A stretch of 56,422 bases of DNA from Thermodesulfovibrio sp. Its GTDB lineage: Bacteria > Nitrospirota > Thermodesulfovibrionia > UBA6902. Position 1 is the first letter of the stretch, and each line of letters opens with the position of its first letter. The position numbers and the translations under genes were made by a program. Shown one piece after another: positions 2,769 through 45,216 of this stretch. Location: assembly GCA_026982355.1 (NCBI GenBank), contig JALSHG010000074.1, positions 1 to 56,422 on the forward strand. The letters are read 5' to 3'. The notes under the pieces were generated by a model. It searched no databases. It saw only the letters and a program-made list of their open reading frames with translations, and was not told the origin of the DNA.

Positions 2769-2801
2769 CTCCCCTGCCGGCTTATGCAACATTAAGGTTT
2801 A
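2769..2801. repeat. Repeat family A end (CTGCCGGCTTATGCAACATTAAGGTTTA)
   Basis: Matches 55915-55941 and 53506-53533; contains the stop codon of the minus-strand kinase. Confidence 0.7.
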
Positions 2802-4840
2802 TCCAGCATCTCCCTTATCTTTCTTACAAGCTTTTCCGCCAGTAAAGGTTTTGACAGGAAATTTATCCCTTCTTCATAGCATCCCTTCCTGTTCAGTTCC
2901 TCGATGGAATAACCGCTCATGAAGAGCGCTTTGATACCGGGTTTCATACTTTTTATTTCCTCATATACCTCTTTGCCGTTCTTCGCCGGCATGACCACAT
3001 CAAGCAGGAGGAATTCAACATCGTCCTGCTTTTCCATGAATTTCCGGACGGCATCCTCTCCGTTTGCGGCCTCTATGACATTGTAACCGTTTTTCTCGAG
3101 TATGACCGCCGTAAGCCTCCTCAGGTCCTCATCGTCCTCCGCCACAAGCACTGTTTCCGAGCCGCGCCTGGGCATTGCCGGGGAGACCGTTTCTTTTTTC
3201 TCATTCGCCGGGCCGCTGAGGGGAATGTAGATTTTAAACGTTGTTCCCATGCCCGGTCCGGTGATAACATCTATATAGCCTTTGTGCTGCTTGACTATGC
3301 CGTATACCATGGAGAGCCCGAGACCTGTTCCCCTGCCGATTTCCTTGGTTGTAAAAAACGGATCGAATATTCTTTCTCTTACATGTTCGTCCATGCCTCT
3401 TCCTGTATCCGTAACGGTTATCATCGCAAACCTGCGGTGTTCTGCCCCGCCGGAGGACAACAGGAACTTTTTATCCGGCTCGGCCGAACTCGTGGCTACA
3501 GTCAGTGAGCCTCCCTCGGGCATGGCATCCCTTGCGTTTGTGGCGAGATTCATCAGGACCTGGTCTATCTGGCCGGCGTCGGTCATTATAATCAGATCCT
3601 CATCTGAAAGCTCGACCTTCAGCTCTATATCCTCCCCTAAAAACCTCTCCAGAATCCCCTTTGCGTTTCTGATGATGTCATTCAGGTTTTCCGGGCTGGG
3701 ATTGTAAACCTCTTTTCTGCTGAATGTAAGAAGACCCTGTATGAAGACCGCCGCTTTTCTGGCGGATGACAGCAAATGATCCAGATACCTGCTTGCCGGT
3801 TCTTCCCTGCCGACTCTCTTCTGCAACAGATGTGCATAGCCGAGTATCGTGCTGAGTGTATTGTTGAAGTCATGTGCTATACCCCCCGCAAGCGTTCCGA
3901 TCGCCTCCATTTTCTGTGAGTGTCTCAGTTGTTCTTCAAGCTGCTGCTTTTCCACCTCTCTTTTCTGCAATGACGCGGCCATATCATTAAAGGCTGTTGC
4001 AAGCCTGCCTATCTCATCCTTTGTCTCAACCGGTATACTTCTGAAAGACCCGGAGGTCTCTATCTCCTTGACTCCTTCAGTCAGCTTGCCGAGCGGCCTT
4101 GTTATCCCCCCGACTATAAAATATGCTATGACCCATCCGGGAATTATAAAGACAACCGGGATGAAAATACTTTTCAGGAGCAGGTCTTTCAGGCTGTTTC
4201 TCATGTGCTCGGTAGTGAATATGATCCTGACGAGGCCGATCAGATTATCCTTTCTGCCGGTTGAGTCTTTTTCAAAGAAAAGCGCCTCTTCTTCAGAGTA
4301 TCCTTCAGCGGAATATGTCTCCCCGGACATAACCGGGGACCAGAATTCTATCCAGTCGCGGCCCTCAAAATACAGCGGTGATCCGGATTTTACGAACATA
4401 TCGATTATTTCCTCCCCGGGAAAAAGCCGATCATCTTTGAAGTACAGCGGTCCGGCGGCGTCCGTTCCCGCCTTCTCAGCACTTTTCAGCGCCCTGAGTT
4501 CCCTCCCGTCGAGACTGAAGACCTCCACCATTATCACTCCCTTGCTCTGCATAATGGCTTCCACCGGGTCTCTGAGCAGGTCGTCGCTCTCTGCAAACAC
4601 GCCGAGCCGCGCACTCTGGGCAAGATGCTTTGAAAACTCTTTTCCCTCATATATGAGATTCTGCTTGAGCGTCTTGCTCTGGTAATAGATGAAAAAGGCC
4701 GTGAAGGCAATGTAAAAGGTCACAAGAAAGATTGTAAACAGATAGAATATCTTTGCACCGAAACTTTCACGGTTGTATTTAAGAAAGCTCAAGAATCTCA
4801 TATGGCTCCCGGCATGATCAGGTCTTGCAGGTTTTTTCAC
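2792..4840 (-). CDS. Membrane hybrid histidine kinase (TM-periplasmic-TM-HAMP-HisKA-HATPase-REC; CckA/NtrB-like core)
   Basis: Two hydrophobic segments, HAMP (ITRPL...DEIGRLATAFNDM), QKMEAIGTLAGGIAHDFNN, NLATNARDAM, DPFFTTK..GTGLGL, C-terminal receiver. Start is either GTG 4840 (GTGA overlap with upstream stop) or ATG 4801. Confidence 0.9.
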   Translation of the reverse strand: MKKPARPDHAGSHMRFLSFLKYNRESFGAKIFYLFTIFLVTFYIAFTAFFIYYQSKTLKQNLIYEGKEFSKHLAQSARLGVFAESDDLLRDPVEAIMQSKGVIMVEVFSLDGRELRALKSAEKAGTDAAGPLYFKDDRLFPGEEIIDMFVKSGSPLYFEGRDWIEFWSPVMSGETYSAEGYSEEEALFFEKDSTGRKDNLIGLVRIIFTTEHMRNSLKDLLLKSIFIPVVFIIPGWVIAYFIVGGITRPLGKLTEGVKEIETSGSFRSIPVETKDEIGRLATAFNDMAASLQKREVEKQQLEEQLRHSQKMEAIGTLAGGIAHDFNNTLSTILGYAHLLQKRVGREEPASRYLDHLLSSARKAAVFIQGLLTFSRKEVYNPSPENLNDIIRNAKGILERFLGEDIELKVELSDEDLIIMTDAGQIDQVLMNLATNARDAMPEGGSLTVATSSAEPDKKFLLSSGGAEHRRFAMITVTDTGRGMDEHVRERIFDPFFTTKEIGRGTGLGLSMVYGIVKQHKGYIDVITGPGMGTTFKIYIPLSGPANEKKETVSPAMPRRGSETVLVAEDDEDLRRLTAVILEKNGYNVIEAANGEDAVRKFMEKQDDVEFLLLDVVMPAKNGKEVYEEIKSMKPGIKALFMSGYSIEELNRKGCYEEGINFLSKPLLAEKLVRKIREMLDKP

Positions 4841-5826
4841 CTTTTAACCGGCCCCGCTCTCTTGAGAAATTCGCCGGCCACGGTTACTCCCAGCTTCCTG
4901 GCCGTCTTGCGGTTTACCGTCACAACCGCCCTTCTCGCATCGGCTTCTTTAATTTTCCTTACATCCATTCCCGACAGAATCTTTTCAGTTATTTCCCACG
5001 CCTGCATGCCTATGTCGGCGGCATCTATGTCGAACGAGATCAATGCACCCATTTCAAGGTATTTATCGGAAAACGTAATCACGGGTATCCTGTTCTCGAA
5101 AGAAAAAAGGAACAGGAGCTCGACAGTCTCAGAGGTAACAACGGTAATGTCGGGCAGCATCCAGAAGGCGTCTATCTTTCCCTTGAGAGACTGCAACAGC
5201 CCGGGGACGTCCTTCGGGTTTTGAATCTCTCCTGCAATTAATACGATACCTGCTTTTTCAGCGGCGGCACGGAGCCTCTTTACAAAATCTCCCGTCCTTG
5301 CCGGGTTATATAAGAGACCTATCGTGCTGATATCCGGTATGGCCATCTTTAAAAGGGACAACTGTTTCTCCGGATTAATGTACAGGCTGACACCTGTAAT
5401 ATTATCACCGGGGGCAGCAACCGGGGAATTGAGAATCATGAAGTAAACGATCGGCGCGTTTTTGATGCTCTTGATCCTGTTAAGCGCATCTATCCCTATT
5501 GCAAGAATAACCGCGGGGTCTGTTTTACGGACCGCCTTCAGGATATCCTCTCCTTCCGGTTCAGAGACGAAAAATTGTTTGACATTGCAATTGCACGCCT
5601 CCTTAAATCCATGCAGCGCATCATTGTACGGCTTAATATTAATGCTCTGCACGGCAACAATATCGGCGGCAACAACTATATCGCGGCAGAATAAAACGGA
5701 CAGCATAATGAACACGCTGCATGCAAATCCCCTTATTCCCCGTCTCTCAAGGACCGTCCGCCGGGCACCCCCGCGGCATCGGTCCGCACCTGCCTTGCTT
5801 TTGAAAGAAACTGTAGCCCGAATCAT
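4837..5826 (-). CDS. ABC-type periplasmic substrate-binding protein (ABC_sub_bind-like), no permease nearby
   Basis: Signal-like hydrophobic stretch, then NITGVSLYI.PEKQL, TIGLLYNP, DAFWMLPD, GALISFDID..DIG.QA motifs typical of this family. True start may lie downstream of 5826. Confidence 0.8.
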   Translation of the reverse strand: MIRATVSFKSKAGADRCRGGARRTVLERRGIRGFACSVFIMLSVLFCRDIVVAADIVAVQSINIKPYNDALHGFKEACNCNVKQFFVSEPEGEDILKAVRKTDPAVILAIGIDALNRIKSIKNAPIVYFMILNSPVAAPGDNITGVSLYINPEKQLSLLKMAIPDISTIGLLYNPARTGDFVKRLRAAAEKAGIVLIAGEIQNPKDVPGLLQSLKGKIDAFWMLPDITVVTSETVELLFLFSFENRIPVITFSDKYLEMGALISFDIDAADIGMQAWEITEKILSGMDVRKIKEADARRAVVTVNRKTARKLGVTVAGEFLKRAGPVKR

Positions 5827-5880
5827 TGTAAAATGTTAACATCAACCGGGATTTATTTTCCCGATTTTTTTATTATATAT

Positions 5881-5980
5881 TAAACTTTCAATGTTGCATA
5901 AGCCGGCAGGAGAGACAGGCGTAAAATTTTCGCCGGACCCTCCGCCCTCGGGCGGAGCCTTTATGCCGCTGGAAGGTAAA
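5881..5980. mobile_element. Repeat family A full-length MITE-like copy in the divergent promoter region
   Basis: TAAACTTTCAATGTTGCATAAGCCGGCAG ... TTTATGCCGCTGGAAGGTAA, with internal similarity to the 32951 copy (GGCGTAAAA...CCGGA). Confidence 0.65.
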
Positions 5981-6051
5981 CTTAAGCCGGATTACATGTA
6001 TAATAAGGGAGCCGTCCGCTGAAAACCGGAGTATTGATATTTGGATATGCC

Positions 6052-7953
6052 ATGAAAGCAATGGTACCGGGCTTTTTTTTAATATCTTTAATATTTGTGC
6101 TTTCCGCCGCATCCGCCTTTGCCCAGTCCGAGGAAGAGATGAGGATTCTCCGGATGTTCTATAAGGAGGATGAACTTGTCGTTACACCGACAAGGACTCC
6201 GAAACCCGTCTCACAGGTTGCAGAGAATATCACCGTCATCACTGCAAGGGAGATGGAAGAAATGAATGCCCACACGCTTGCCGAGGTGCTGGAAAGGGCG
6301 ACGGGCCTGTTCGTTGAGTTCTTCGGGCATGATTTCGGCAGCGACGCCAATATATACATCCAGGGTTCCGACGAAAACCACGTCCTGCTGCTTATAGACG
6401 GGGTGCCCTGGAATCTGATGAACAACGGAAAACCCCTGGTGAATTCGATTCCTGTGAAAATAATCCGGCATATCGAAATTATCAAAGGTCCGGCATCATC
6501 ATCGTGGGGCTCATCCCTCGGAGGCGTGATAAATGTCGTTACAAAGGATGCGGGAAACAGGAGCAGGCCCGGCGGCACGGTCGGCGCCTCATACGGCGAA
6601 AGAAACACGCAGGATTACAGCGTTGAAGTCTCGGGCAAGGCAGGAAATGTCGGCTATTACCTGCAGGCAGGCAGGCAGTATTCCAGCGGCCTGAGAAACG
6701 GGCGCTATTTCAAAAGCGACAGTTTATACTCAAAGTTCAGCATTTCCGTCGCGCCGCGCACACATTTCGTGTTGACCGCCGGGTACAACGAGCCTCATAT
6801 AAATTATGGCGACATGCCGGCTGTCGATCTGACATCCGCTGCTTTAAGCCGCACCTTTTTTGCAACGGCGTCCATTTCCGCAGAGCTTGCGGAATTCCTC
6901 AGTCTCGAGGCATCCGTCCACACTCTAAAACAGAAATTCGTGCAGAACAACAATGAACTCGCTACAGGTGATCTGTACATGGATGCCGTCTATGACGAAG
7001 AAACCACAGGGGCCAGCGGCAAGCTCATCTGGAGAGACAAAGTGCATACAGCGGTTGTGGGCGCTGACATCAGCGATGGGCATCTCGACCAGACGATCAC
7101 GGCCGGACGTTTTCTGCAGTCATTCGGAGCGCCGGAGAGTTCCGAAACAACCCCGGCAATGGAAAAGTGGGCGATCTTCGCCAATGATACGATAACTATC
7201 GGCAGATTCTCCATAACGCCGGGCATCAGGTTCGATCACAACAATATCAGCGGAGACTTTACAAGCCCGAGCCTCGGGGCCACATACAGACTCGGCGAAC
7301 AGACCATCCTCCGGGCATCCGTGGCAAGGGGATTTACCATACCGCTCCTGATATACACATCCGGCGCGCTGTATATTGACCCCAACCCGGACCTGAAGCC
7401 GGAAAAGGTATGGTCCTACCAGGCAGGCGTGGAATCATGGGTGTCGGACTATTTCCGCGTCAAGGCCGCCGTCTTCCATCACAACATGAATGACGCCCTC
7501 GTGGATGCTGCGCCTCCTACTGAAAACGCGTTATACGTCAACGAGGGCAATATAAAACGTGACGGGATCGAACTCGATATAAAGACAGCGCCGTTTAATG
7601 CTGTCTCGCTTAAAACCGGATTTGCATATGTTCATAAAAGGCTTTATCTCGGGGAAACGACATCCGAAGACAACTATGCCTGCAATCTGGCCGTCAGGTA
7701 TGACGACAACAGGTCATTATCAGCCCGGCTTGCCGGCAGCTATATATGGTGGGACCGTGCAAAAGAGGATAACGCAAAATACAACACGGTTATATGGGAT
7801 TTAAACATCAACAAAACAATTTACTCCACCGGGGGCACGAACAGCGAATTTTTCCTGACCGTCCATAATATCTTCAACGGCTCCCATTACACCTTCGACC
7901 AGCGCAAAAATCCGCGCAGATGGATGGAGGCAGGACTGAGATTAAGTTTTTGA
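6052..7953 (+). CDS. TonB-dependent outer-membrane receptor
   Basis: Signal peptide (SAFAQ), plug motifs VVTPTRT...ENITVIT, VLLLIDGVP, IEIIKGPASSSWG..LGGVINVVTK, NPDLKPEK, C-terminal LRLSF. Confidence 0.93.
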   Translation: MKAMVPGFFLISLIFVLSAASAFAQSEEEMRILRMFYKEDELVVTPTRTPKPVSQVAENITVITAREMEEMNAHTLAEVLERATGLFVEFFGHDFGSDANIYIQGSDENHVLLLIDGVPWNLMNNGKPLVNSIPVKIIRHIEIIKGPASSSWGSSLGGVINVVTKDAGNRSRPGGTVGASYGERNTQDYSVEVSGKAGNVGYYLQAGRQYSSGLRNGRYFKSDSLYSKFSISVAPRTHFVLTAGYNEPHINYGDMPAVDLTSAALSRTFFATASISAELAEFLSLEASVHTLKQKFVQNNNELATGDLYMDAVYDEETTGASGKLIWRDKVHTAVVGADISDGHLDQTITAGRFLQSFGAPESSETTPAMEKWAIFANDTITIGRFSITPGIRFDHNNISGDFTSPSLGATYRLGEQTILRASVARGFTIPLLIYTSGALYIDPNPDLKPEKVWSYQAGVESWVSDYFRVKAAVFHHNMNDALVDAAPPTENALYVNEGNIKRDGIELDIKTAPFNAVSLKTGFAYVHKRLYLGETTSEDNYACNLAVRYDDNRSLSARLAGSYIWWDRAKEDNAKYNTVIWDLNINKTIYSTGGTNSEFFLTVHNIFNGSHYTFDQRKNPRRWMEAGLRLSF

Positions 7954-8027
7954 GAAAATCCGCCGTATATACAGGGATGTAACCCTGCTGTACGCAGGGG
8001 TAACCCATATGGTAAAAGGAGGGCAGG

Positions 8028-8129
8028 ATGGAAAGGGAAGAAATCGTAGTACTGGACAGTGGTCTCGATACGGAGGACATGGAAAGTCTCGGTCCATGCT
8101 GTAAAGGGGCATCTGCACCATTGCGATAG
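8028..8129 (+). CDS. Geopeptide-like RiPP precursor, 33 aa: MEREEIVVLDSGLDTEDMESLGPCCKGASAPLR
   Basis: Hand-translated; strong RBS AAGGAGG at 8016-8022; acidic leader (IVVLDxG) and Cys-Cys core resemble the geopeptide family; lies directly before a radical SAM/SPASM gene. Below the ORF-track cutoff. Confidence 0.85.
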   Translation: MEREEIVVLDSGLDTEDMESLGPCCKGASAPLR

Positions 8130-8137
8130 CAACGGAA

Positions 8138-8164
8138 AGAAGGGGGGGCGGCGCTCCCCCCTTC
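8138..8164 (+). other. GC-rich hairpin between precursor and maturase
   Basis: GAAGGGGGG-GCGGCGCT-CCCCCCTTC inverted repeat with no U-tract; likely mRNA stabiliser or attenuator. Confidence 0.55.
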
Positions 8165-8181
8165 CTGAAAAGCGCTCCACA

Positions 8182-9483
8182 ATGAAACTCTCCCGTTACA
8201 TAAAGATATTTCCCTTTGAAAAAAAGCCGGGATACGTGCTCCTTTACTCTACCGGAAAAGCATCCGCGGCCCTTGTGAAAGAAGAGACGCGCGATTCCAT
8301 CGGGAAAGGCACGCTGTCCCCGGAAAACAAGGCAACGCTGTTGAAGCTCGGCATGATCGTACCGGACGGTGAAACGGAAAAGAGGGAGGCCGCCGGCTTC
8401 ATGGACAGGATCAACAGCAAAAATTCCGGGCTGAACATATCCGTGATCCTCAACCTCGATTGTAATTTCGACTGCATATACTGCTATGAAGACGGCATGA
8501 AGGGCAGACTCTACATGAGTGATGAGACGGCCGGCCTTCTGACGGCTTTCATCAAAAAGAAATTCAGGCCGGGGAAGAGGTCGCTGAACATAGATTTTTA
8601 CGGCGGGGAGCCGCTGCTGAGCACGGGCCTGATCAAATCCGTTTCCGCAGAGATGAAGTCTTTTGCACAAAGCCGGGGCGCCTCCTATACATTCACACTT
8701 GTTACAAACGGCTCCCTCTTTAAGAGAAAAATTGCGGAGGACCTGGTTTCGATGGGACTGAAAGGCGTTAAGATCACCATAGACGGGCCTCCGGAGATTC
8801 ATAACGCCTGCCGTCCTTTCAAATCAGGCGCCGGCAGCTTTGACACGATTATAAAAAACATAAATGAAACGTGTGACATCGTCAATGTTGCCGTAGGCGG
8901 CAATTACCGGGAGAGCAATTTTGAAAAATTTCCCCTGCTCATGGATCATCTGGAACGCGAAGGGCTTACACCGGAGAGGATATACGAGTTGAAATTCGAT
9001 CCTGTGATGAAACGCGCCGGCGGCGACAGGCCCGCGGCCGATTACACGGACGGTATCATGACCGTAAACGAGCCGTGGGTGATACGGGCGGGGACAGCCC
9101 TGAGAGAGCAGATATTGAAAAGGGGATACATGACCCCGAAGATCACTCCCAGCCCCTGCCAGGTGGAGATAACGGACTCTTTTGTCGTAAACTTCGACGG
9201 CGTTATATACAAGTGCCCTGTGTTCATCGGCAGGGACGGCTTCAGCATAGGAGACCTGAAGAATGGCGTGAGGGATTACTCCGCTGCATATAACCTCGGC
9301 ATCTGGAAAAATGAAAAGTGTGTGGAATGCGAATATCTTCCCCTTTGTTTCGGAGGCTGCAGGTACATGTCCTATGTGCGGGACGGCGGTATGGATAATG
9401 TTGACTGCAAGAGAGCATACCTTGATGCCGCGCTCGAGTATCTTGTCAAGCAGGACATACAGTATGCACGGAAAACAATATAA
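8182..9483 (+). CDS. Radical SAM/SPASM peptide maturase (geopeptide maturase-like)
   Basis: CNFDCIYC (CxxxCxxC), FYGGEPLL, VTNG, ITIDG; SPASM cysteines C...YKCP...CVECEYLPLCFGGCR...C. Start MKLSRY at ATG 8182; the ORF-track start 8059 overlaps the precursor. Confidence 0.92.
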   Translation: MKLSRYIKIFPFEKKPGYVLLYSTGKASAALVKEETRDSIGKGTLSPENKATLLKLGMIVPDGETEKREAAGFMDRINSKNSGLNISVILNLDCNFDCIYCYEDGMKGRLYMSDETAGLLTAFIKKKFRPGKRSLNIDFYGGEPLLSTGLIKSVSAEMKSFAQSRGASYTFTLVTNGSLFKRKIAEDLVSMGLKGVKITIDGPPEIHNACRPFKSGAGSFDTIIKNINETCDIVNVAVGGNYRESNFEKFPLLMDHLEREGLTPERIYELKFDPVMKRAGGDRPAADYTDGIMTVNEPWVIRAGTALREQILKRGYMTPKITPSPCQVEITDSFVVNFDGVIYKCPVFIGRDGFSIGDLKNGVRDYSAAYNLGIWKNEKCVECEYLPLCFGGCRYMSYVRDGGMDNVDCKRAYLDAALEYLVKQDIQYARKTI

Positions 9484-9552
9484 AGGTTAATGCGGCATAA
9501 ACGTGCAGACTCCTCTGTCCCGCCAGCGGTGTTTTTATGCACCTGCAAGTTA
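9481..9552. mobile_element. Repeat family A copy
   Basis: TAAAGGTTAATGCGGCATAAACGTGCAG ... GTTTTTATGCACCTGCAAGTTA; begins at the rSAM stop codon. Confidence 0.65.
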
Positions 9553-9694
9553 AATAATTCCGTTCTCCCGGACTCCCCCGGGCATTTCCATGCAACCGCG
9601 TAACGCCGTCCGGCATTGGGGCATCAAGCTTGATTTAATTAATAAAATTTTTTAATAATAAGTATTATTTACATAAAGGAACAGACTCCGGGAC

Positions 9695-10267
9695 ATGGGG
9701 AAAATCCTGATAATCGATGATGACAAAGACATACAGTCCGTTCTTTCGGATATCATAAGAGCCGAAGGATACGAAACTGTTATTGCCGGCAACGGCAGAA
9801 CAGCGCTCAGGGAAATTGCAAAATCTCCGCCGGACGTGGTCCTGCTGGATATCAGGCTCCCCGGGATGGACGGGATGAAGGTCCTCGAGAAGATCAAAAA
9901 TACGGACAAAAACATGATAGTCATCATGCTTACCGGTTACGGGGACATCAAGGACGCCGTACAATCAATGAAAATGGGGGCCTTCAACTATATCACCAAG
10001 CCGTTTGAAAATGAGGAGATCATACTGAATATCAAGGAAGCCCTGCAGACACGCAATTCCGCCTCCGGAAAGCTCTCCCACAGGGAAAAAGAAGTCCTCA
10101 GATGGCTGAAAAAAGGTAAAACATCCTGGGACATTTCGGTAATTCTCTGCATCACCGAAAGAACCGTGAACTTTCATATCAAAAACATCATGCAGAAGCT
10201 CGATGCAGTAAGCAGGACCCATGCCGTCGTAAAGGCAATCGAGATGGGACTGATCAACGGCACATAG
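9695..10267 (+). CDS. Response regulator: NtrC-like receiver fused to LuxR-type HTH
   Basis: ILIIDDD...LLDIRLPGMDG...MLTGYG...YITKPF, then LSHREKEVLRWLKKGKTSWDISVILCITERTVNFHIKNIMQKL. Confidence 0.9.
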   Translation: MGKILIIDDDKDIQSVLSDIIRAEGYETVIAGNGRTALREIAKSPPDVVLLDIRLPGMDGMKVLEKIKNTDKNMIVIMLTGYGDIKDAVQSMKMGAFNYITKPFENEEIILNIKEALQTRNSASGKLSHREKEVLRWLKKGKTSWDISVILCITERTVNFHIKNIMQKLDAVSRTHAVVKAIEMGLINGT

Positions 10268-10661: not shown

Positions 10662-11873
10662 ATGACAAATAACCGCAAGGTATATGTAAAGATAGTACTG
10701 CTATTCCTGCTGACCGTAATCCCCTCGTTTATAGAAAACAATCTTTTCAGAATTTCCTGTGCCTTCATTATCGGTTCATCTGCCGCCGCGGCCGGTATCG
10801 CACTTATGAAGAGACACGCGAAAGATCTCGAAGACAGGCTCGACACCGACAGAAAGGAATACGTGGCAGGGGTAGAGGCCGTGATAAAGAACATGCACGA
10901 GACCCTCCGGGAAAAATTACAGCTCATTCCCGTATTTGTAAACCAGCTTCAGGAAGTCACGCAACAGACCGAATCAGCCGCCATGGATATCGGTGAGCGT
11001 TTCATGAATATTGTCGAAAGGGCGAGAAATCAGTCCGCGGAGGCATCAAATGCCTTTATAAAGCTTGCCGGAGACGGGGGAAACAACGACGAGACGCTTA
11101 CAAAGTTGAGCAAAAAAGCGCTTTCCGATGTAATAGAGAGCCTGCAGGGCTCTGCGACCGTCACCAATCAGACACTGGGTGACATGGAGGTGATCATCAA
11201 GGCCACGGGCAATGCCAGGACAATGGTTGACGAGATCGGCTACATTGCGGAACAGACAAACCTCCTGGCGCTGAATGCGGCGATAGAGGCGGCCAGGGCC
11301 GGCGAACAGGGCCGCGGGTTTGCCATTGTCGCAGATGAAGTAAGAAAGCTTTCGGACAGGTCGAATACGGCGGCGGATGAGATCAGGAAAATAGTCACGC
11401 GCATCGAGACGGATACAAAAGAAATCTATCTGAAAACCGAAAAGAATGTCTCAAAGACCAACAGCGTCTCCACAGGAGCGGCGGAGGTGGTGGATGACAC
11501 CCTGAAAAAGATAGACGAAACGATCGGCAGGGTGAAAACCCAGCTCGATGATCTCACGAAAGAGTCCGAACTCCTTGCAAAAGACATAAGCGACATAGTC
11601 ATTTCCATGCAGTTTCAGGACATCACGAGACAGCGCATCGAACATGTGATCGAACCGCTGCTTGCGTTCAGGTCCGAGCTTGAAGACATGATAAAAAACA
11701 CAACGGATATGGGCAGAAAGATACGGCAGGGAAAAAGAAATGCTGTAAGCGGCCTGCTTGAGGACATGTATACAATGGAAGCCGAGAGAAGGGTATTCCG
11801 CGAGACAATCGAAAACGGAGCGGCCAATCAAAAAACTGCGGGGGATGAGATATGGCAAAAACAATCCTTATAG
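10662..11873 (+). CDS. Methyl-accepting chemotaxis protein, atypical, with C-terminal QFQDITRQ motif
   Basis: [36 protein letters not shown] signalling hairpin; short N-terminal hydrophobic region. Confidence 0.88.
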
Positions 11874-15020: not shown

Positions 15021-17234
15021 ATGAGATGGAAGGATCTCAAAATCGGGAAAAAACTGGCGGTAGGCTTCGGAAGCATGCTTGTACTGATAACGATATCGAG
15101 TTTCGTGGGCTTCAACGGTATCCGGAAAGTAGGCCATGATCTTTTTATTGTTGGGCAGAAAGACGCCCCGGTGGTGGAAGTGGCCAGCCGCATGAAAATG
15201 GCGCTCATGATGGCAAAGGACGCAATGGAGAAATTCAAGAGCGCCACTGCCGCGATCGCCACCGACAACAAAAAGATGCTTGACGGCATAGATAAGAACT
15301 ACAATCAGTCCGTGGCCGACTTTGACCGTTTATCAGATGCCGTTCTGGAAGGCGCCAGGCTTGAGGACGGGACAACCGTCATAAAGACAGACAATAAGAA
15401 ACTTGCGGACCTTGTACGCCGGGCGGACGAGATGCACAACAAAAAATTCCAGGTCGCCGCAAGGGCACTGATGCAGACAGGCAGGGAATTACTGAACGAA
15501 AAGGCGAAAACCGACAGGGCCATGGCCGAAACCGAGGCAATCTATAACGAAGTATACAGTGACGCAGGCGCCGTGGAAGAGATGATATCCGCTGAAATTG
15601 ACAGAAGAGCTGAAAAAGCCACTATCGGCAGCAGGGCAAGGGCGATCCTGCGCGAAGAAATCCCCCTCGCCGATCTGGCGAACGAACTGAAGATAATAAT
15701 GGCCCAGAGCCGTATAGCGCTTGAAGAGTATGTTCAGGAACGTGATTTCAAGGAACTGGACAGGATAGAAAAAAAACACGCGGAGCGGGAATCCCAATTT
15801 CACGAGAATATCTCGGCGATCCTCAACGGCGGGGTCATAGGCGGCAGGACCATCATTGCGACTGACAACAAGGGTATCCGGGACGCCGTCACGGAACTGG
15901 CGAAAAACTACGATGATTACAAAGAGAAGGCAAGACTCCTCATGGCGGCTCATCGCGCGACCATTGAGAAGGCATTGGAAAGCAAAAAAGATATGGAAGA
16001 GCTGGACAGGCTCGGGGAAGAGGCGCACATCCTGCTGACAAAGGTACAGGAGGTTGCCGGCGAGGAAATGGATGAAGCCATAAAAGACGGCAACGCCACC
16101 AAGAAGAGCGCCGCCGCCATGCTCGTGGGCGTGGCGTCCTTCTCCATACTGATAGGCGTGCTTCTGGGGATAGTCATCACAAGGGGAATCACCGGACCCC
16201 TCTCAAGGGGGGTGAAGTTTGCGACAGACATTGCCGAAGGCGACCTCACGGCTCGTATGGATATAGATCAGAAGGACGAGGTCGGCATCCTGTCCGGGGT
16301 ACTGGGGAACATGGCGGCAAAACTTCGTGAAATCGTGGGAGATGTAAAGGCGGCGTCGGACAACGTGGCGTCGGGCAGCCAGCAGTTAAGCGCCAGTTCG
16401 CAGCAGATGTCGCAGGGGGCGACGGAGCAGGCCGCCTCGGTTGAGGAGGCGTCCTCATCAATGGAGCAGATGGCCGCCAACATCAGGCAGAACGCAGACA
16501 ACTCGCAGCAGACCGACAAGATCGCGGGCAAGGCCGCCAGGGACGCGCAGGAAGGCGGCGAGGCGGTTTCACAGGCGGTTGACGCAATGAAAGAGATAGC
16601 GGGGAAAATTTCCATCATCGAAGAGATAGCGAGACAGACGAACCTCCTGGCGCTGAACGCGGCCATTGAGGCTGCAAGGGCCGGCGAGCACGGCAAGGGC
16701 TTTGCGGTGGTCGCCGCGGAGGTCAGAAAGCTTGCGGAACGCAGCCAGGCCGCGGCGGCGGAGATAAGCGACCTGTCGTCTTCCAGCGTGGAGGTCGCCG
16801 AAAGGGCCGGTGAAATGCTGAAAAAGATCGTGCCAGACATACAGAAGACCGCGGAACTGGTGCAGGAGATAAACGCGGCATGCAATGAACAGAACTCGGG
16901 GGCGGAACAGATAAACAAGGCCATTCAGCAACTGGACCAGGTCATCCAGCAGAACGCGGGGGCATCAGAGGAAATGGCCTCGACCGCGGAGGAACTCGCC
17001 TCACAGGCCGAGCAGTTGCAGAACGCCATCGGTTTCTTCAAAACCGGCGACGACGGCAGGACAGTGAAAAGACACGAAACATTAAAAAGCAGAAACCTGC
17101 CCCCGCAGACACCAGTCAAAACAAAAACGGCACACATCGTGCGCCAGGAGAAAACAGAGGCGCCAAAGTCCACCGGTATCGTCCTGGACATGGACGCCAA
17201 CGATGATGCGGACGAGGACTTTGAAAAATATTAA
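15021..17234 (+). CDS. Methyl-accepting chemotaxis protein with large periplasmic domain, HAMP and C-terminal pentapeptide DFEKY
   Basis: Two TM segments, [49 protein letters not shown]-like tail. Confidence 0.93.
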
Positions 17235-17326: not shown

Positions 17327-17890
17327 ATGAGTGTATCAGGAATAACAGAGGCGACACAGCACCTGACATTCAAGCTTGATGATGAAATATTCGCACTGGA
17401 TATTTCAAAGGTGAGGGAGGTGCTGGAATTCACGACCGTGACAAAGGTGCCGCAGACACCGGATTTCATGTGCGGGGTCATCAATCTCAGGGGAGGGGTC
17501 GTGCCGGTGGTCGATCTCAGGTTGAAGTTCGGCATGCCCGAGGCCGAGAAGACGGTGAACACCTGCATTATTATTGTCGAGGTGTCCCTGGACGGAGAAA
17601 CCACAGTGCTCGGCGCGCTGGCTGATTCGGTGCAGGAAGTGTTCGAGCTCGAGCCCGACCAGATAGAGCCGGCGCCCAAGATCGGGACAAGACTGAAGAC
17701 CGATTTCATCAAGGGCATGGGAAAGCGCGACGACCAGTTCATCATGATCCTCGATATAGACAAGGTGTTCTCAACGGATGAGCTCGCAATCGTCCAGGAT
17801 GCTGGCAATTGCACGTCCCCCGGCGATAAAACAGAAGACAAACCGCAAGATAACGATGAACCGGCAGAAGGAGGAACATCATGTTCTTGA
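17327..17890 (+). CDS. cheW: Chemotaxis coupling protein CheW
   Basis: [20 protein letters not shown]...[27 protein letters not shown]. Confidence 0.94.
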
Positions 17891-19560
17891 ACAATATCAA
17901 GATCGGGACAAAACTGGGAATGGGCTTCGGCATTGTTCTCCTGCTCTTTATAACAGCCATAGTCACCACCAACATGTACCTCAATGTAGTGGTCGCCAAT
18001 TCAAAGAAAGTCGAGAGTGAAAGCATCCCCTATTCACTGCTTGCTGACAGGATGGTGCTGGATACGGTACAAGTGCAGCAGTGGTTGACGGATGTCTCCG
18101 CGACGCACAACCCGGACGGGTACAGGGATGCTGAAGAAGCAGCCGCTGACTTCAGGGCGGGGCTGGAAAAGTTCAAAGAGATGTTCAGGAGAGAAAACGA
18201 CACGGATTCCCTCCGGCAGATGGAAGAAATAGAAACCGCCTTCGTCCGGTTTTATGAGACCGGAAAAAAGATGGCAAATGCCTATGTAACTCAGGGGCTG
18301 GAAGCCGGCAACAGGATGATGGAAGAATTCGACGATGCCGGCTCAGACCTGTCGGCGAGAGTGAGTGAATTGCAGAAGGCACAGAGCAAGGAAGCGGAAA
18401 CAATGATGCATCACATACTGAAGTCTGTTGCCAAGGTCGAGAGGATACTGATGATGATGGGCGGAATTACCGTCATACTGAGCATACTGACGGCCTTCAT
18501 CATTACCCGGAGCATAACCCGTCCCATGAATGAGGCGGTTGCCGCAACAAAGAAGTTGTCCGGAGGAGACCTCACCGCCCGCGTTGAGGTGAAAAGCAGG
18601 GATGAAACCGGGCAACTGCTTGCCGCCCTGAACACCATGTCGGGAAACCTGAAAGAAATCGTGGGAGATGTAAAGGCGGCGTCGGACAACGTGGCGTCGG
18701 GCAGCCAGCAGTTAAGCGCCAGTTCGCAGCAGATGTCGCAGGGGGCGACGGAGCAGGCCGCCTCGGTTGAGGAGGCGTCCTCATCAATGGAGCAGATGGC
18801 CGCCAACATCAGGCAGAACGCAGACAACTCGCAGCAGACCGACAAGATCGCGGGCAAGGCCGCCAGGGACGCGCAGGAAGGCGGCGAGGCGGTTTCACAG
18901 GCGGTTGACGCAATGAAAGAGATAGCGGGGAAAATTTCCATCATCGAAGAGATAGCGAGACAGACGAACCTCCTGGCGCTGAACGCGGCCATTGAGGCTG
19001 CAAGGGCCGGCGAGCACGGCAAGGGCTTTGCGGTGGTCGCCGCGGAGGTCAGAAAGCTTGCGGAACGCAGCCAGGCCGCGGCGGCGGAGATAAGCGACCT
19101 GTCGTCTTCCAGCGTGGAGGTCGCCGAAAGGGCCGGTGAAATGCTGAAAAAGATCGTGCCAGACATACAGAAGACCGCGGAACTGGTGCAGGAGATAAAC
19201 GCGGCATGCAATGAACAGAACTCGGGGGCGGAACAGATAAACAAGGCCATTCAGCAACTGGACCAGGTCATCCAGCAGAACGCGGGGGCATCAGAGGAAA
19301 TGGCCTCGACCGCGGAGGAACTCGCCTCACAGGCCGAGCAGTTGCAGAACGCCATCGGTTTCTTCAAAACCGGCGACGACGGCAGGACAGTGAAAAGACA
19401 CGAAACATTAAAAAGCAGAAACCTGCCCCCGCAGACACCAGTCAAAACAAAAACGGCACACATCGTGCGCCAGGAGAAAACAGAGGCGCCAAAGTCCACC
19501 GGTATCGTCCTGGACATGGACGCCAACGATGATGCGGACGAGGACTTTGAAAAATATTAA
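17881..19560 (+). CDS. Methyl-accepting chemotaxis protein (4HB-type sensor, HAMP, DFEKY tail)
   Basis: Two TMs, periplasmic [16 protein letters not shown], signalling domain identical to that of 15021-17234. Confidence 0.93.
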
Positions 19561-21560: not shown

Positions 21561-21605
21561 ACCGCCGGGTGGGGGGTGCCGGCCCGTGGAGGATTTCCGG
21601 ATAAA

Positions 21606-22865
21606 ATGACAGAGGAACAATCCCTGCTTGAGACAATCAGACAACTGAAAGAGGCCAAGGAAGCCGCCGAGGCTGCAAACCGCGCCAAGAGTGATTTTCT
21701 GGCCAGTATGAGCCACGAGATACGCACGCCCATGAATGCAATCATCGGAATGACCGAACTCGTCCTCGACACCGACCTTACACCCGAACAGAGGGAATGT
21801 ATTGAAATTACAAAGCAGTCCGCGGATTCCCTGCTGAGCCTGCTGAATGATATTCTGGATTTTTCCAAGATCGAGGCCGGCAAGATGGAACTTGAAATCA
21901 CGGATTTCAATCTCCATACCACCCTTAACGGCATAATCAGGACACTCAGGGTGCAGGCGCACAAAAAGGGTCTCGAGCTGTTGTGCCGTATCAATCCCGA
22001 TGTCCCGGCGGAACTCAGGGGAGACAATGTAAGGCTCCGGCAGATAATAGTCAACCTCGTGGGAAACGCCATCAAGTTCACCGAGAAGGGGAAGATCGCC
22101 GTAAATGTCGAACGCGCAACCTCCGGAAACGGCGGCAAAGACACAGGCATGCATGAAAACGGCCGGACGATACTCCTGCATTTTTCCATAACGGACACCG
22201 GCGCCGGCATCCCTGCGGACAAGCTTAAGAGCATATTTGAAAGTTTCACGCAGGTGGGAGGAGCCTCCACCGGGAAGTACGGCGGAACAGGCCTCGGCCT
22301 GAGCATATCGAGGAAACTCGTGCACATGATGGGCGGGGAAATCCGTGCCGAAAGCGAGCCCGGCAGGGGAAGCGCATTTCACTTTACCGCAAGGTTCGGC
22401 CTTGTCCGCAAGGCGGAAAGACGGGAGCACGCTTCACCGGATGAAGGCCGTGGAAGCGGCCGTCACGGGAAAAAATTTCATATCCTGCTTGCGGAGGACA
22501 ATATCATAAACCAGAAACTGGCCGTCCGCATCCTGGAAAAGGCGGGACACTCCGTGAAAGTCGCTGATAACGGCCTGGAAGCCCTTGAGGCACTGAAAAA
22601 AGAACATTTTGATCTGGTGCTCATGGATGTGCAGATGCCCCTTATGGACGGCATAGAAGCGGCCGGGAGAATCAGAAACTCGAAAAACGGTGACTTTGAC
22701 CCTGATATACCGATCATCGCGCTGACCGCTCATGCCTTCAAAGAGGACAGGGAGCGGTGCCTGAGGGCCGGCATGAATGACTATATTTCAAAACCGTTCA
22801 GGAAACAGGAGCTTTTCAGGATGATTGAACGGCTTATTCCGAGTGAGACTTACAGTAGGCGGTAG
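21606..22865 (+). CDS. Sensor-less hybrid histidine kinase (HisKA-HATPase-REC, BarA-like core)
   Basis: [36 protein letters not shown], receiver; only a short coiled coil upstream. ATG at 21606. Confidence 0.88.
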
Positions 22866-23355: not shown

Positions 23356-26292
23356 ATGTTGTACAACAGGGCGCTTAAATACATTTTTATTGTTTCATGC
23401 ATGACGGCGATAATATACCCGCTGGCAAACACGCGTTTCATATTCCCGTCATTCCGCGAGCTGGTAAACAGGAATGCCAGGGACAATGCGGTGCGCATAG
23501 CAAATTTCCTCTCCTCGGAACTTTCCCTGAAGAATGAGGGGTTGACAAGAGACTCCATCCCCGCCGGTTTTTCCGACACGGCAAAAGACATAAAGGAGAA
23601 ATTCCACATACGGAAGCTCAAGGTCTTTTCAAAATCCGGGGAAATACTGTTTTCCACGGACCCGGCTGATATAGGCGAGGTAAACAAAAAAGACTATTTC
23701 CGCGAAATCGTGGCAAAGGGGAATACATACACCAAGGTCATCCGCAACAACGGCCTGTCCCTGGAAGACCGTCCGGTAAAGGCCGATGTGGTGGAAACCT
23801 ACGTGCCCCTGACGGTTGACGGAGCCTTTGCCGGGGCGTTTGAAATATATGACGATATCACACATAACAAACAGATGCTTGACAGCGTGCTGCTGCGCTC
23901 CTCCCTGATAACCTCGGGCCTGATGTTCGCTTTCCTGGTCATTATACTGCTGATCCTGTTCAGGGCCGAGAAAAACATTCCGGATTTCAGTGACACTCGG
24001 GCAAAGATGTTCAGGTCGCCCCTTTACGTCATATTTGTCACGGCGGTTTCGATATTCATCGCCGAACTGGCCGTCATGCTGCTTCTTTCAGGCTTTCCGC
24101 GCACGCCCGGGATAGCGCGGCCGCTCATGGACGCATCGCTGCTGATTATGCTGGTGTCACCGTCGCTGTATTTTTTCATATTCCGGCCCATGATAATGCA
24201 CAACCTGCAACACAAAAAGAACGAAGAAGACCTTAAGCGCTCAAAGGAATTCTCCGAGAGCGTGTTCAACTCCATGCATGACGCCATATCCGTCATTGAT
24301 GTCGCTGATTTTAAAATTATCAAGGCCAACAGCACGTTTCTCAGAGAGTACGGATTAGAAGAAGACGAGATAATAGGAGAGCCCTGTTACAGGATACTCC
24401 ACCACAGGAATGAGCCGTGCACCGGATCGGATACCGTGTGCCCCCTTGAGGAAACCATAAAAACAGGCAAGCATTCCGCGACCGAACACGTCCATTACAC
24501 CAAAGACGGCAGAAAGATCGACGTGGAGGTGTCCGTCTCCCCTGTTAGGGACAGGAACGGAAATATCATACAGGTCGTCAACGCCGCACGAAACATAACG
24601 GAGCGTAAGAAGGCGGAGGAGATGCTCCGGCAGAGCCAGCATGACTGGGAGGAGACCTTCAACATCATAACGGACTCCATCACGATCCACGACAGGGACC
24701 ACAACATCATCAGGGCCAACAGGGCGGCCGAGGAAATGCTCTTCCTGCCCCTGCTTGAAATCACCAAACCGAAATGCTACATGTATTATCACGGAACGGA
24801 CAAACCGCCCGAGGGGTGCCCGAGCTGCAAGTGCATCAAGACAGGCAAGGCCGTTGAATTCGAATTGTTCGAGCCACACCTGAACAGGTTTATTGAAATA
24901 AGGGCCATTCCCCGGTTTGACGCAAACCGTGAGTTTACAGGGCTGATCCATGTTGTCAGGGATATCACCGAGCGTAAGAAGGCTGAGGAAGAGCTGAAAA
25001 AGGCAAAGAAGGCCGCCGAGGCCGCCAACCGCGCCAAGAGCGAATTTCTTGCCAACATGAGCCACGAGATACGCACGCCCATGAACGCAATCATCGGCAT
25101 GACCGAACTCGTCCTTGATACGGAACTGATGCCGGAGCAGAGGGAATATATCGAAATCACAAAACAATCCGCGGATTCGTTGCTGTGCCTGCTGAACGAC
25201 ATACTGGACCTGTCCAAGATCGAGGCGGGCAAGCTGCAGCTTGAGGAGAAGGATTTCAACCTCCACGCAACACTGGACGGCATAGTCAAGACACTCTCCC
25301 TGCAGGCCGGCAGGAAAGGGCTTGACATCATCTGCCGCATCGCCCCCGACGTCCCCCCGGAGCTGAGAGGGGACAACGTTCGTCTCAGGCAGATCATCGT
25401 CAACCTCGTGGGAAACGCCGTCAAGTTCACCGACAAGGGCAGAGTCCTCGTCAATGTCGAACGCTGTGCTTCAGGAAACGGCGACAATGATATCGAGACC
25501 GCCGGAGACGCCCGGACGGTGCTGCTTCATTTCTCCATCTCGGACACGGGCATCGGCATCCCCGCGGACAAGCTCAGGAGCATCTTCGACAATTTCACAC
25601 AGGTGGACGGCTCCACCACCAGGAAATACGGCGGCACGGGTCTGGGCCTGGCCATCTCCAGGAAACTCGTGGGCATGATGGGAGGGGAAATTCACGCTGA
25701 AAGCGAACCCGGCAAGGGCAGTTCCTTCCACTTTACCGCAAGATTCGGCGTCGGACACAGCACGGCAAAGCGGCATGCGCGGCATTCCTCACCCGCCTTC
25801 CCACATGCCCGCGGCGATGCCGCACCATCCGGCCCCCGCCGGGATAAAGAACGAATCAGCGGCCTGCGTATCCTCCTTGCCGAAGACAATATACTGAATC
25901 AGAAAGTGGCGGTGCGTATTCTCGAGAAAGAAGGACACACCGTGCACGTCGCAAGCAACGGCCTGGAAGTGCTCGATGTGCTCGAAAAGGAGAATTTCGA
26001 CCTTGTGCTCATGGATGTGCAGATGCCCCTTATGGACGGCATAGAGACCACACTCATAATCAGGAATTCAAAAAACGGCCGGTTCAATGCGGATATTCCG
26101 GTCATCGCGCTGACCGCGCATGCCTTCAAAGAGGACAGGGAACGCTGCCTGAAAGCCGGAATGAATGACTATATCTCCAAACCGTTCAGGAAACAGGATC
26201 TCCTGAGGCTGGTTGAACGGTTTGCCGTGCCGGAATTCACATGGAATACGAAAAATGGACTGAGGAGGCGATATGAGGGTTTTAATAGTTGA
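23356..26292 (+). CDS. Membrane hybrid histidine kinase with two Cys-rich PAS domains
   Basis: Multiple TMs, two [16 protein letters not shown]-box, HATPase, receiver. Confidence 0.92.
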   Translation: MLYNRALKYIFIVSCMTAIIYPLANTRFIFPSFRELVNRNARDNAVRIANFLSSELSLKNEGLTRDSIPAGFSDTAKDIKEKFHIRKLKVFSKSGEILFSTDPADIGEVNKKDYFREIVAKGNTYTKVIRNNGLSLEDRPVKADVVETYVPLTVDGAFAGAFEIYDDITHNKQMLDSVLLRSSLITSGLMFAFLVIILLILFRAEKNIPDFSDTRAKMFRSPLYVIFVTAVSIFIAELAVMLLLSGFPRTPGIARPLMDASLLIMLVSPSLYFFIFRPMIMHNLQHKKNEEDLKRSKEFSESVFNSMHDAISVIDVADFKIIKANSTFLREYGLEEDEIIGEPCYRILHHRNEPCTGSDTVCPLEETIKTGKHSATEHVHYTKDGRKIDVEVSVSPVRDRNGNIIQVVNAARNITERKKAEEMLRQSQHDWEETFNIITDSITIHDRDHNIIRANRAAEEMLFLPLLEITKPKCYMYYHGTDKPPEGCPSCKCIKTGKAVEFELFEPHLNRFIEIRAIPRFDANREFTGLIHVVRDITERKKAEEELKKAKKAAEAANRAKSEFLANMSHEIRTPMNAIIGMTELVLDTELMPEQREYIEITKQSADSLLCLLNDILDLSKIEAGKLQLEEKDFNLHATLDGIVKTLSLQAGRKGLDIICRIAPDVPPELRGDNVRLRQIIVNLVGNAVKFTDKGRVLVNVERCASGNGDNDIETAGDARTVLLHFSISDTGIGIPADKLRSIFDNFTQVDGSTTRKYGGTGLGLAISRKLVGMMGGEIHAESEPGKGSSFHFTARFGVGHSTAKRHARHSSPAFPHARGDAAPSGPRRDKERISGLRILLAEDNILNQKVAVRILEKEGHTVHVASNGLEVLDVLEKENFDLVLMDVQMPLMDGIETTLIIRNSKNGRFNADIPVIALTAHAFKEDRERCLKAGMNDYISKPFRKQDLLRLVERFAVPEFTWNTKNGLRRRYEGFNS
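25164..26174 (+). repeat. ~1011-bp direct repeat, copy 1 (kinase core plus receiver)
   Basis: Appears identical to 27443-28453 (offset 2279); a further identical block 25010-25121 precedes a short divergent patch. Confidence 0.85.
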
Positions 26293-40352: not shown

Positions 40353-40384
40353 ATTAAGAATAACCGCAGGATTCAGAGTAAGGG

Positions 40385-43494
<3,110 letters not shown>

Positions 43495-43645
43495 CCTTTA
43501 CTCTAATCCCTACAGTTTTCAAAGATCACGCAGGCTCAGCCTGCAATTTCAGATACATGACCTGAAACTTCTTGCATTCAATTTGAAAATTAAAAAGTAG
43601 GCCCGCAAAATCTCGCGAATCTTTTTTGTTGCTTGTTACACCTTA

Positions 43646-45216
<1,571 letters not shown>

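Follow-up and report, generated by a model that had tools for sequence, protein, structure and literature searches.

A widely conserved gene module linking a Cys-Cys peptide and its radical SAM maturase to outer-membrane uptake and periplasmic sensing genes

Here, we describe a gene module that occupies positions 2792-10267 of contig JALSHG010000074.1 (assembly GCA_026982355.1) of a Thermodesulfovibrio sp. from the phylum Nitrospirota; the whole 56,422-nucleotide stretch that was analysed is referred to below as the window. Open reading frame (ORF) listing and domain scans located six genes with the expected domains in this interval, encoding a hybrid sensor kinase, a PF04392 substrate-binding protein, a TonB-dependent outer-membrane receptor, a 33-residue precursor peptide with two adjacent cysteines, a radical S-adenosylmethionine (rSAM)/SPASM maturase and a response regulator, which confirms the gene content and positions given in an initial annotation of this DNA. 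The maturase and precursor families had been named before; the new part is the linkage of a well-supported module in several phyla, together with a mechanism that can be tested. The composition of the module suggests that it makes, takes up and senses a product, such that double-membraned bacteria would re-import and sense their own modified peptide.

Peptide signalling is a textbook subject for single-membraned bacteria and is regarded as uncommon in double-membraned ones, since their outer membrane does not let peptides pass freely. The module supplies the parts that are missing there, namely an energised importer in the outer membrane and a reader in the periplasm. The reading that we prefer, tentatively and with somewhat less than even confidence, is that the released modified peptide would act as a self or kin signal of the autoinducer type, which is re-imported and sensed in the periplasm. 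Re-import with periplasmic sensing would be the simplest mechanism, because the constant partners of the peptide and its maturase amount to an outer-membrane route, a periplasmic binder and an outward-facing kinase, with no inner-membrane importer among them.

Conservation of the module across phyla

The survey on which these statements rest began with 13 aligned maturases and comprises 80 loci from named public genomes (the best 80 of 559 confirmed relatives), each with up to 10 kb of sequence on either side of the maturase gene. These loci were searched with the window's own proteins, presence being counted by position on the basis of phmmer matches. Many of the 80 are cut by contig ends, and the well-flanked subset consists of 32 family-level loci in which each flank extends over 7 kb or more. 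Within this subset, the receptor is present in all 32 loci, the PF04392 protein in 31 and a kinase directly after the latter in 27; any receiver-domain protein is found in 20 and chemotaxis (che) genes in four. The corresponding counts for all 80 loci are 66, 54, 44, 35 and 4. Even among the five well-flanked exceptions, four have the kinase nearby, either after the maturase (L090, L103 and L115) or further from the binding protein (L086), and the fifth (L053) has no binding protein. De novo clustering of all neighbouring ORFs returned the same partners plus a 461-aa regulator (21 loci) as the only recurrent ones; no inner-membrane importer, reductase, metal-related gene or further tailoring enzyme is conserved with the module by this clustering. 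The initial annotation had expected all six genes to be conserved together, and this holds for the receptor, precursor, maturase, binding protein and kinase, but not for the REC-LuxR regulator.

The membership of the module is unchanged across three gene orders: a divergent order (the window and Desulfobacterales), a collinear order of receptor, precursor, maturase, binding protein, kinase and regulators (most Nitrospirota), and Geobacter-type inversions. The module is spread over Nitrospirota, Thermodesulfobacteriota (Desulfobacterales, Geobacteraceae and Desulfobulbia) and other groups, and is conserved in this way across several environmentally important anaerobic phyla. Its carriers include cultured organisms, named in their record titles as Geomesophilobacter sediminis Red875, Geomonas paludis Red736 and Geotalea toluenoxydans JCM 15764. 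The first of these, a member of the Geobacteraceae, contains two tandem modules (L068, 5413-17539) with che genes upstream, and each of the two has its own receptor, binding protein and maturase and a distinct peptide tail. The initial annotation had also suggested that the module may control the adjacent che cluster, which begins at 10662 in the window. This link does not extend to the family in general, as che neighbours recur in only four of the 80 loci, two from Nitrospirota and two from Geobacteraceae, and control of the cluster is only a lead.

The near-constant position of the receptor beside the precursor and maturase (32 of 32 well-flanked loci), and the presence of a separate receptor and binding protein with each paralogous module of one genome, speak against an explanation that assigns the sensing genes a ligand other than the peptide. 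Receptor, binding protein and kinase would in that case form a general sensing cassette for another imported compound and merely regulate the precursor and maturase, whose product would have another site of action and might be, for instance, an antimicrobial, a peptide that protects against stress or the precursor of a cofactor. We regard this explanation as unlikely, and return to it with the receiving genes that lack a maturase.

Seven more distant loci bear on the same question. These combine a Cys-Cys peptide with an rSAM enzyme (L109, L111-L114, L116 and L117) in Planctomycetota, Omnitrophota, Spirochaetaceae and one Nitrospirota genome, and their maturases score 187-238 bits against that of the window. 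A dCache_1-HAMP kinase and a regulator are encoded in all seven, and a TonB receptor with an SBP_bac_5 protein, of an oligopeptide-binding family, in four; the other three have less than 1.2 kb of upstream sequence. In two loci (L113 and L114), the maturase gene is followed by ABC exporter genes, the ABC proteins of which are devoid of a C39 peptidase domain. The distant loci keep the same logic with non-homologous binding-protein and kinase families in place of the PF04392 and sCache_4-type parts. Such a swap to SBP_bac_5, in company with ABC exporters, is what a peptide ligand predicts, unlike an unrelated ligand. The SBP_bac_5 replacement, the distant exporters and the pattern in which each peptide has its own receptor set all speak for the peptide as the ligand.

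Among the closer relatives, four loci encode a half-size MFS protein of 186-189 aa directly after the maturase (L039:11114-11677, L042:2228-2788, L043:11302-11868 and L163:8796-9353), its gene overlapping the maturase stop codon in three of them, and this protein is a candidate exporter. The window genome contains no close copy of it, the best match (E 5e-5, 27% identity) lying inside a 413-aa frame. No exporter or protease was found among the window ORFs scanned, which were part of the total, and to this extent the absence of both that had been remarked upon earlier stands.

Precursor peptide and maturase

The precursor gene (8028-8129, + strand) encodes the 33-residue peptide MEREEIVVLDSGLDTEDMESLGPCCKGASAPLR; AAAGGAGGG is located upstream of this ORF, which is equipped with a strong Shine-Dalgarno sequence. 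The peptide is built of an IVVLDSG leader motif, an invariant Cys-Cys and an eight-residue tail ending in P-L-R. The initial annotation had likened both peptide and maturase to the geopeptide families, and these fared differently: the maturase exceeds the TIGR04280 cut-off (564 bits versus 400), but the precursor reaches only 12 bits against TIGR04229 (cut-off 30, E 0.15), even though this was the sole family matched. Membership of TIGR04229 was rejected, and the test was replaced by a custom profile of 60 precursors from other loci, the window being excluded. Searched against the 1535 stop-to-stop frames of the window, this profile retrieved the precursor ORF with an E value of 6.9e-8, the next-best frame having an E value of 0.04.

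The wider Cys-Cys precursor family was defined as small ORFs on the same strand and just upstream of the maturase, with a hydrophobic-x-G leader, a Cys-Cys and 4-20 residues from there to the stop codon, and the window precursor displays every one of these features. Among the 75 loci with at least 150 nt of upstream sequence, 70 possess an ORF with such a Cys-Cys tail just before the maturase, and 60 combine the tail with the leader motif. Control scans returned a precursor-like ORF in none of 70 windows after the maturase and in three of 71 on the opposite strand. An earlier, stricter pattern had matched 43 loci; the relaxed pattern with its controls was used instead.

The Cys-Cys is constant across the precursors, and the tail varies between lineages and is conserved within them. 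The tail class of the window, C-C-x5-P-x-R, accounts for 13 of 44 aligned precursors. In Geobacter, the tails have many small residues and a basic residue at the end, and in Desulfobulbia they are longer, with abundant Pro, Ser and Thr. In six Nitrospirota precursors (L067, L070, L083, L085, L107 and L108), the leader motif is replaced by a histone-like, long N-terminus rich in Lys, Ala and Thr that precedes the Cys-Cys. Two Desulfurivibrionaceae loci (L079, approximately 9383-9520, and L089, approximately 7695-7832) contain a leader-like small ORF with a single Cys some 250-300 nt upstream of the maturase.

The maturase gene (8182-9483, + strand) encodes a protein of 433 aa, which aligns to TIGR04280 over practically the entire profile (E 2.2e-169; residues 1-428 on profile positions 1-427 of 428) and is the only match above the cut-off of this family in the 2.6-Mb genome. 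Both the CX3CX2C motif (C94, C98 and C101) and seven cysteines with SPASM spacing (C326, C345, C380, C383, C389, C393 and C409) are invariant in the 13 aligned homologues, and the SPASM domain model TIGR04085 is matched with 52.8 bits (cut-off 27). Its best characterised paralogues are CefB (172 bits), PapB (127 bits) and the SCIFF maturase (99 bits), each of these matches lying under its own cut-off (600, 340 and 425, respectively).

Small peptides are the starting material from which SPASM enzymes make pyrroloquinoline quinone (PQQ) and mycofactocin, and there is a TonB receptor for PQQ. In the manner of these two compounds, the product of the module might stay in the cell envelope as a cofactor-like precursor, or as a periplasmic or cytoplasmic effector, with the receptor scavenging the finished compound. 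The PQQ receptor PqqU is among the weak matches of the window receptor (55 bits versus a cut-off of 1200; solved chain 9c4o, E 1.6e-8), and the lack of a conserved exporter also agrees with such a role. We nevertheless consider it quite improbable: the tails are lineage-specific, with that of the window confined to fewer than a third of the aligned precursors, which would not be expected of a universal cofactor scaffold; the conserved set has no additional tailoring enzymes; and the constant partner of the maturase is a sensing kinase, not a metabolic enzyme.

In a comparison with L038-L048, L104 and the Nitrospirota loci, the closest relatives of the window maturase (57-62% identity) were mostly of Desulfobacterales type, and the closest relative of the window binding protein (51%) belongs to Nitrospirales. 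The divergent gene order and the Desulfobacterales-like maturase in a Nitrospirota genome could mean that the module was passed as a whole from one phylum to another.

Receptor, binding protein, kinase and regulator

The receptor gene (6034-7953, + strand) encodes a BtuB-sized protein of 639 aa, with a plug (Pfam, 73.8 bits) and a barrel of the 22-strand type (116.2 bits). No other domain was found, so that an N-terminal signalling domain is absent, and a DELVVTP stretch occupies the position expected of the TonB box. Its nearest solved chain is BtuB, matched over the plug only (E 8e-22, query residues 45-205). A grouping of the receptor with cobalamin or siderophore importers had been named in the initial annotation as evidence that would speak against peptide uptake, and no such grouping emerged: the scores remain under the cut-offs of TonB-B12 (TIGR01779, 138.2 versus 599.7), BtuB (NF007926, 120.1 versus 836) and the siderophore receptors (TIGR01783, 121.7 versus 223.5), no cobalamin, haem or siderophore model is reached, and every NCBIfam equivalog is far below its cut-off. 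Similarly, an Rfam scan of the window detected no riboswitch or known RNA ahead of the receptor, two rRNA genes being the sole matches. A surface-signalling transducer of the FecA/FpvA type was considered and rejected, since the receptor has no N-terminal extension and its neighbours are the binding protein, kinase and maturase and not an anti-sigma factor and an extracytoplasmic function (ECF) sigma factor.

A TonB receptor inside a biosynthetic cluster is, however, a hallmark of siderophore and methanobactin loci, and the same genes and the same route could serve acquisition instead of communication. The secreted Cys-Cys peptide would then be a metallophore-like public good that captures a scarce metal or another nutrient, is re-imported through the TonB receptor and, by periplasmic sensing, drives positive feedback as in siderophore systems. 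The invariant Cys-Cys is plausible as a metal-binding element, the carriers are, by their record titles, anaerobes of sulfidic or metal-reducing habitats, and genomes with receiving genes only could be read equally well as pirates of a public good or as listeners. In one locus (L086), the maturase gene is immediately followed by a Fur-family gene; this is, though, just one of the ten post-maturase genes scanned. The absence of a conserved inner-membrane importer, reductase or metal-related gene argues further against acquisition, as does the chemistry of the thioether-forming relatives, which uses up Cys thiols and would therefore remove the thiol ligands for a metal. Sequence alone does not decide between a signal of the autoinducer type and a metallophore cargo; we keep to the former, at the tentative strength given at the outset, and hold the latter to be distinctly doubtful.

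The binding-protein gene (4837-5826, - strand) encodes a PF04392 protein (132.8 bits versus a cut-off of 25.9) that carries a hydrophobic signal or anchor at its N-terminus. The 2.6-Mb genome has no second match to PF04392, and the protein falls below the TrpX equivalog (81.9 versus 390). No permease or ATPase genes adjoin it among the adjacent window ORFs, no genome-wide search for unlinked permeases having been made, and its description as an orphan binding protein would hold for the locus. The kinase gene (2792-4840, - strand) follows, and its GTG start overlaps the binding-protein stop by 4 nt; if the alternative start at Met14 (ATG 4801), where the orthologues begin, is used, a gap of 35 nt separates the two genes. 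The kinase has two transmembrane (TM) segments and is laid out as TM1 (approximately 31-53), a periplasmic domain (approximately 55-218), TM2, HAMP (242-292), HisKA, HATPase_c and REC (564-675). The H-box histidine, His322, is nearly invariant in 33 orthologues, and the periplasmic part gives a weak, sub-threshold match to sCache_4 (E 0.023; 15 bits versus a cut-off of 22.1).

The coupling of the two genes is also evident from the 37 genes directly after a binding protein, that of the window included: 35 encode a kinase ATPase domain, 27 HAMP, 25 HisKA, 15 sCache_4 and 14 a receiver. The two without an ATPase domain are probably the two aconitase matches, which were taken as chance neighbours. 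An Hpt domain was found by Pfam in only one of these 37 related sensors and not in the window kinase; elsewhere in the window, such domains occur in a hybrid kinase (26688-28916) and a CheA (30980-32959).

In order to assess contact between the two proteins, the binding protein (residues 55-329) was co-folded with the periplasmic domain of the kinase (55-218). The pair scored 0.55, the best of three controls reaching 0.02, with at least 91% contact agreement between runs and a partner pLDDT of at least 72. In the calibration, 58 of 80 solved complexes came up to the mark, as did two of 110 mismatched pairs, counts that hold only roughly because our own alignments were used; scores of 0.60 or less were obtained for just seven of those 80 complexes, and for both of the mismatches that passed. 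Since solved complexes of binding proteins with kinases exist, the pass may reflect likeness to these. The model thus lends weak support to docking of the binding protein on the periplasmic domain of the kinase.

The regulator gene (9695-10267, + strand) encodes a REC-GerE/LuxR helix-turn-helix protein of 190 aa and is located 211 bp after the maturase, behind an A+T-rich region of its own. In L160, from a genome of the same taxonomic order, an orthologue (236 bits) and the maturase stop overlap by 8 nt. Among the loci examined, a REC-LuxR gene directly follows the maturase only in the window and L160, and the regulator thus counts as a genuine sixth gene, though one limited to its lineage. 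Its candidacy as a conserved sixth member was rejected, as the genes of approximately 188 aa at that site in L039, L042 and L043 encode the half-size MFS proteins. Elsewhere, the regulators beside the kinase are of NtrC, LuxR or other types: a receiver occurs in 18 of 24 sequences for the next position after the kinase (23 genes plus the window regulator), sigma-54 activators account for six, and LuxR-type regulators, that of the window included, likewise for six.

Within the window, the binding-protein/kinase pair and the receptor/precursor/maturase genes diverge from an intergenic region (5827-6033) with presumed promoters. The likely start of the receptor is ATG 6052, and the true start of the maturase is ATG 8182, where the initial ORF listing had GTG 8059. 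Consensus-type promoter matches in 5827-6033 and 9484-9694 number 16, against 9.7 expected; a search of the same two regions for regulator sites, which was not aimed at a Fur box, gave weak repeats only and nothing usable. A G+C-rich inverted repeat in the gap between precursor and maturase (8138-8166, + strand) can form a hairpin of -24 kcal/mol. As a processing or attenuation element it was discarded (z = -1.4; 20 of 200 shuffled sequences fold equally well or better), and it is not used as evidence.

Signalling genes are unusually densely packed across the entire window, and their products include two CheA proteins, several methyl-accepting chemotaxis proteins (MCPs) and a PAS hybrid kinase with the Hpt domain mentioned above (26688-28916). 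A separate pair of a HisKA_3 kinase and a NarL-type regulator is encoded upstream of the module (300-2752). The MCPs at 15021-17234 and 17881-19560 share, as judged from their translations, an identical C-terminus of approximately 310 residues, which points to a very recent duplication or an assembly repeat, and the hybrid kinases at 21576-22865 and 23356-26292 are near-identical in their kinase and receiver regions. A complete pair of 23S and 16S rRNA genes is located at 40383-45216 (- strand).

Proposed mechanism and comparison with known systems

Receiving genes also occur in the absence of a working maturase. In a sample of 301 genomes of the phylum, homologues of the binding protein are present in 152 and a maturase above the cut-off in 31. 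Three genomes (G031, G217 and G241) have receptor, binding protein and kinase with no maturase above the cut-off, and two others (G197 and G081) have, within the stretches fetched, binding protein and kinase alone, likewise with no maturase above the cut-off. In G226 (L170, contig 26, 5068-6206), the maturase is in two pieces with two TGA stops, and the receptor, binding protein, kinase and regulator are intact; L171 and L172 are wholly decayed extra copies of the module, in genomes that also have intact ones. Some of these maturase breaks may be assembly errors, because the assemblies are drafts or derive from metagenomes. In a tree of 87 binding proteins, 14 unlinked sequences are scattered among 73 maturase-linked ones, which requires six changes, at least four of them forced by well-supported branches; these changes are not a rate, because the unlinked rows were chosen from top hits.

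These data bring back the explanation in which the receptor, binding protein and kinase serve another imported compound. The greater abundance of the binding protein relative to the maturase and the nesting of unlinked binding proteins among linked ones agree with it, as do triads that have neither maturase nor other cargo genes. While it is, as stated above, an unlikely explanation in view of the linkage and the distant systems, some of the evidence in its favour counts equally among the points that weigh against our preferred reading of a re-imported peptide signal, and these are gathered here. Two receptor/binding-protein/kinase triads (L150 and L153; receptor 490 and 338 bits) lie between housekeeping genes with no maturase; they are near-orthologous to that of the module, and the triad therefore does not need this peptide. 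The solved structures of PF04392 proteins have single aromatic amino acids as ligands and not peptides, according to the available excerpt of one source (PMC10443332). As the module is inherited as a block, linkage cannot show which part binds what, and every step beyond gene linkage, whether export, uptake, binding or phosphotransfer, is an inference. Clustering of the neighbouring ORFs of the loci revealed no recurrent exporter or leader protease. The modelled docking on the kinase carries little weight, direct phosphotransfer to a LuxR-type regulator is not assured because the kinase is a hybrid without Hpt, and the position and type of the regulator are not conserved across loci.

With these points in mind, the signalling route that we favour may be outlined as follows. 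The TIGR04280 enzyme would modify the precursor at or around the invariant Cys-Cys, and the nearest characterised relatives suggest thioether cross-links as the likeliest chemistry. The product would then leave the cell, by a route for which no exporter is visible in this genome, and the linked TonB-dependent receptor would return it across the outer membrane. In the periplasm, the PF04392 binding protein, which has no transporter genes beside it, would capture the product, and the loaded protein may dock on the Cache-like periplasmic domain of the kinase, as the coupling of the two genes and the weak computational evidence would have it. The kinase would set the phosphorylation of a response regulator, in the window presumably that encoded at 9695-10267, and thus change transcription; this relay by a lineage-variable regulator would be the last step. 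The variable peptide tail would give specificity, and relatives with only the receiving parts would be listeners.

Taken to its fullest extent, this route would amount to a peptide-pheromone circuit, in which an rSAM-cross-linked peptide is released, re-imported through TonB and read in the periplasm, with tails as pherotypes and reception-only relatives as eavesdroppers, and which, across Nitrospirota, Thermodesulfobacteriota, Planctomycetota, Omnitrophota and Spirochaetota, was assembled anew on at least two occasions with binding proteins and kinases that are not homologous. In this extended form we consider it possible but somewhat doubtful. If the peptide is indeed a signal, the module represents a new design of cell-cell communication; as a metallophore, the peptide would belong to a new class of metal scavengers, made by rSAM enzymes, in metal-cycling anaerobes. 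Either way, a testable function is provided for a named family that, as far as our searches show, has no described product or role, and a ligand class is proposed for the widespread orphan pairs of PF04392 binding proteins and kinases.

The closest named relatives are the geopeptide families TIGR04229 and TIGR04280. The window maturase is a full-length member of the latter, and its precursor is likewise encoded directly upstream with a Cys-Cys near the C-terminus. The differences lie in the precursor, with its score far short of the TIGR04229 cut-off, and in the breadth of the sampled family, which extends far beyond Geobacter and has lineage-specific tails. Full-text searches, which did not cover supplements, found no description of a product or function of these families, or of the linkage of the module. 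With regard to the chemistry, CefB, PapB (of the ranthipeptides) and the SCIFF maturase share the CX3CX2C motif, the seven-Cys SPASM pattern and Cys-dependent substrates with the window enzyme; the substrate here, however, has two adjacent Cys and a short tail, and is without the acidic acceptors of ranthipeptides.

Methanobactin operons encode a chalkophore that is a peptide made on the ribosome and modified after translation (RiPP), together with the TonB transporter MbnT and the orphan periplasmic binding protein MbnE. The likeness to the module is that of a RiPP cluster with its own TonB importer and a binding protein that lacks a cognate permease. Methanobactin is, however, made by MbnBC chemistry and not by an rSAM/SPASM enzyme, and its regulation proceeds through the receptor to an ECF sigma/anti-sigma pair, whereas a kinase coupled to the binding protein is found here and the window receptor is without an N-terminal signalling domain. 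Furthermore, any tie of the present module to copper or another metal would be hypothetical.

Clusters that combine rSAM enzymes and TonB receptors have also been described in Bacteroidota. A Parabacteroides cluster comprises a two-component system, a precursor, an rSAM enzyme, a TonB-dependent receptor and a peptidase-ABC transporter (PMC9389541), and the itf cluster of B. thetaiotaomicron contains the TonB-dependent transporter ItfF (PMC11002830). These clusters employ other precursor and enzyme families and, in the excerpts of the two sources that were available, no binding protein is mentioned and the role of the receptor is also unassigned.

The Agr, ComCDE and NisKR pheromone cassettes of monoderm bacteria similarly encode a small ribosomal peptide, in some cases a modified one, with a kinase and a regulator, and the distant loci L113 and L114 add ABC exporters to this likeness. 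No outer membrane, TonB receptor or binding protein takes part in those systems, and the ABC proteins here are without the C39 peptidase.

Finally, for the sensing pair, the nearest parallel is LuxP-LuxQ. LuxQ is listed with LuxP and AI-2 in the available excerpt of PMC8050422, according to which the genes for kinase-stimulating binding proteins sit with signalling genes. The adjacency of the binding-protein and kinase genes in the window, with its 4-nt overlap or 35-nt gap, is of the LuxPQ type and is found in 27 of the 32 well-flanked loci. In both systems, a binding protein encoded beside a hybrid kinase would present an extracellular signal to a Cache-like domain, as is presumed for the module. 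The two differ in that AI-2 is a small molecule that requires no TonB receptor and is bound by a protein of the Peripla_BP_4 family, whereas the binder here belongs to PF04392 and its presumed ligand is a ribosomal peptide.

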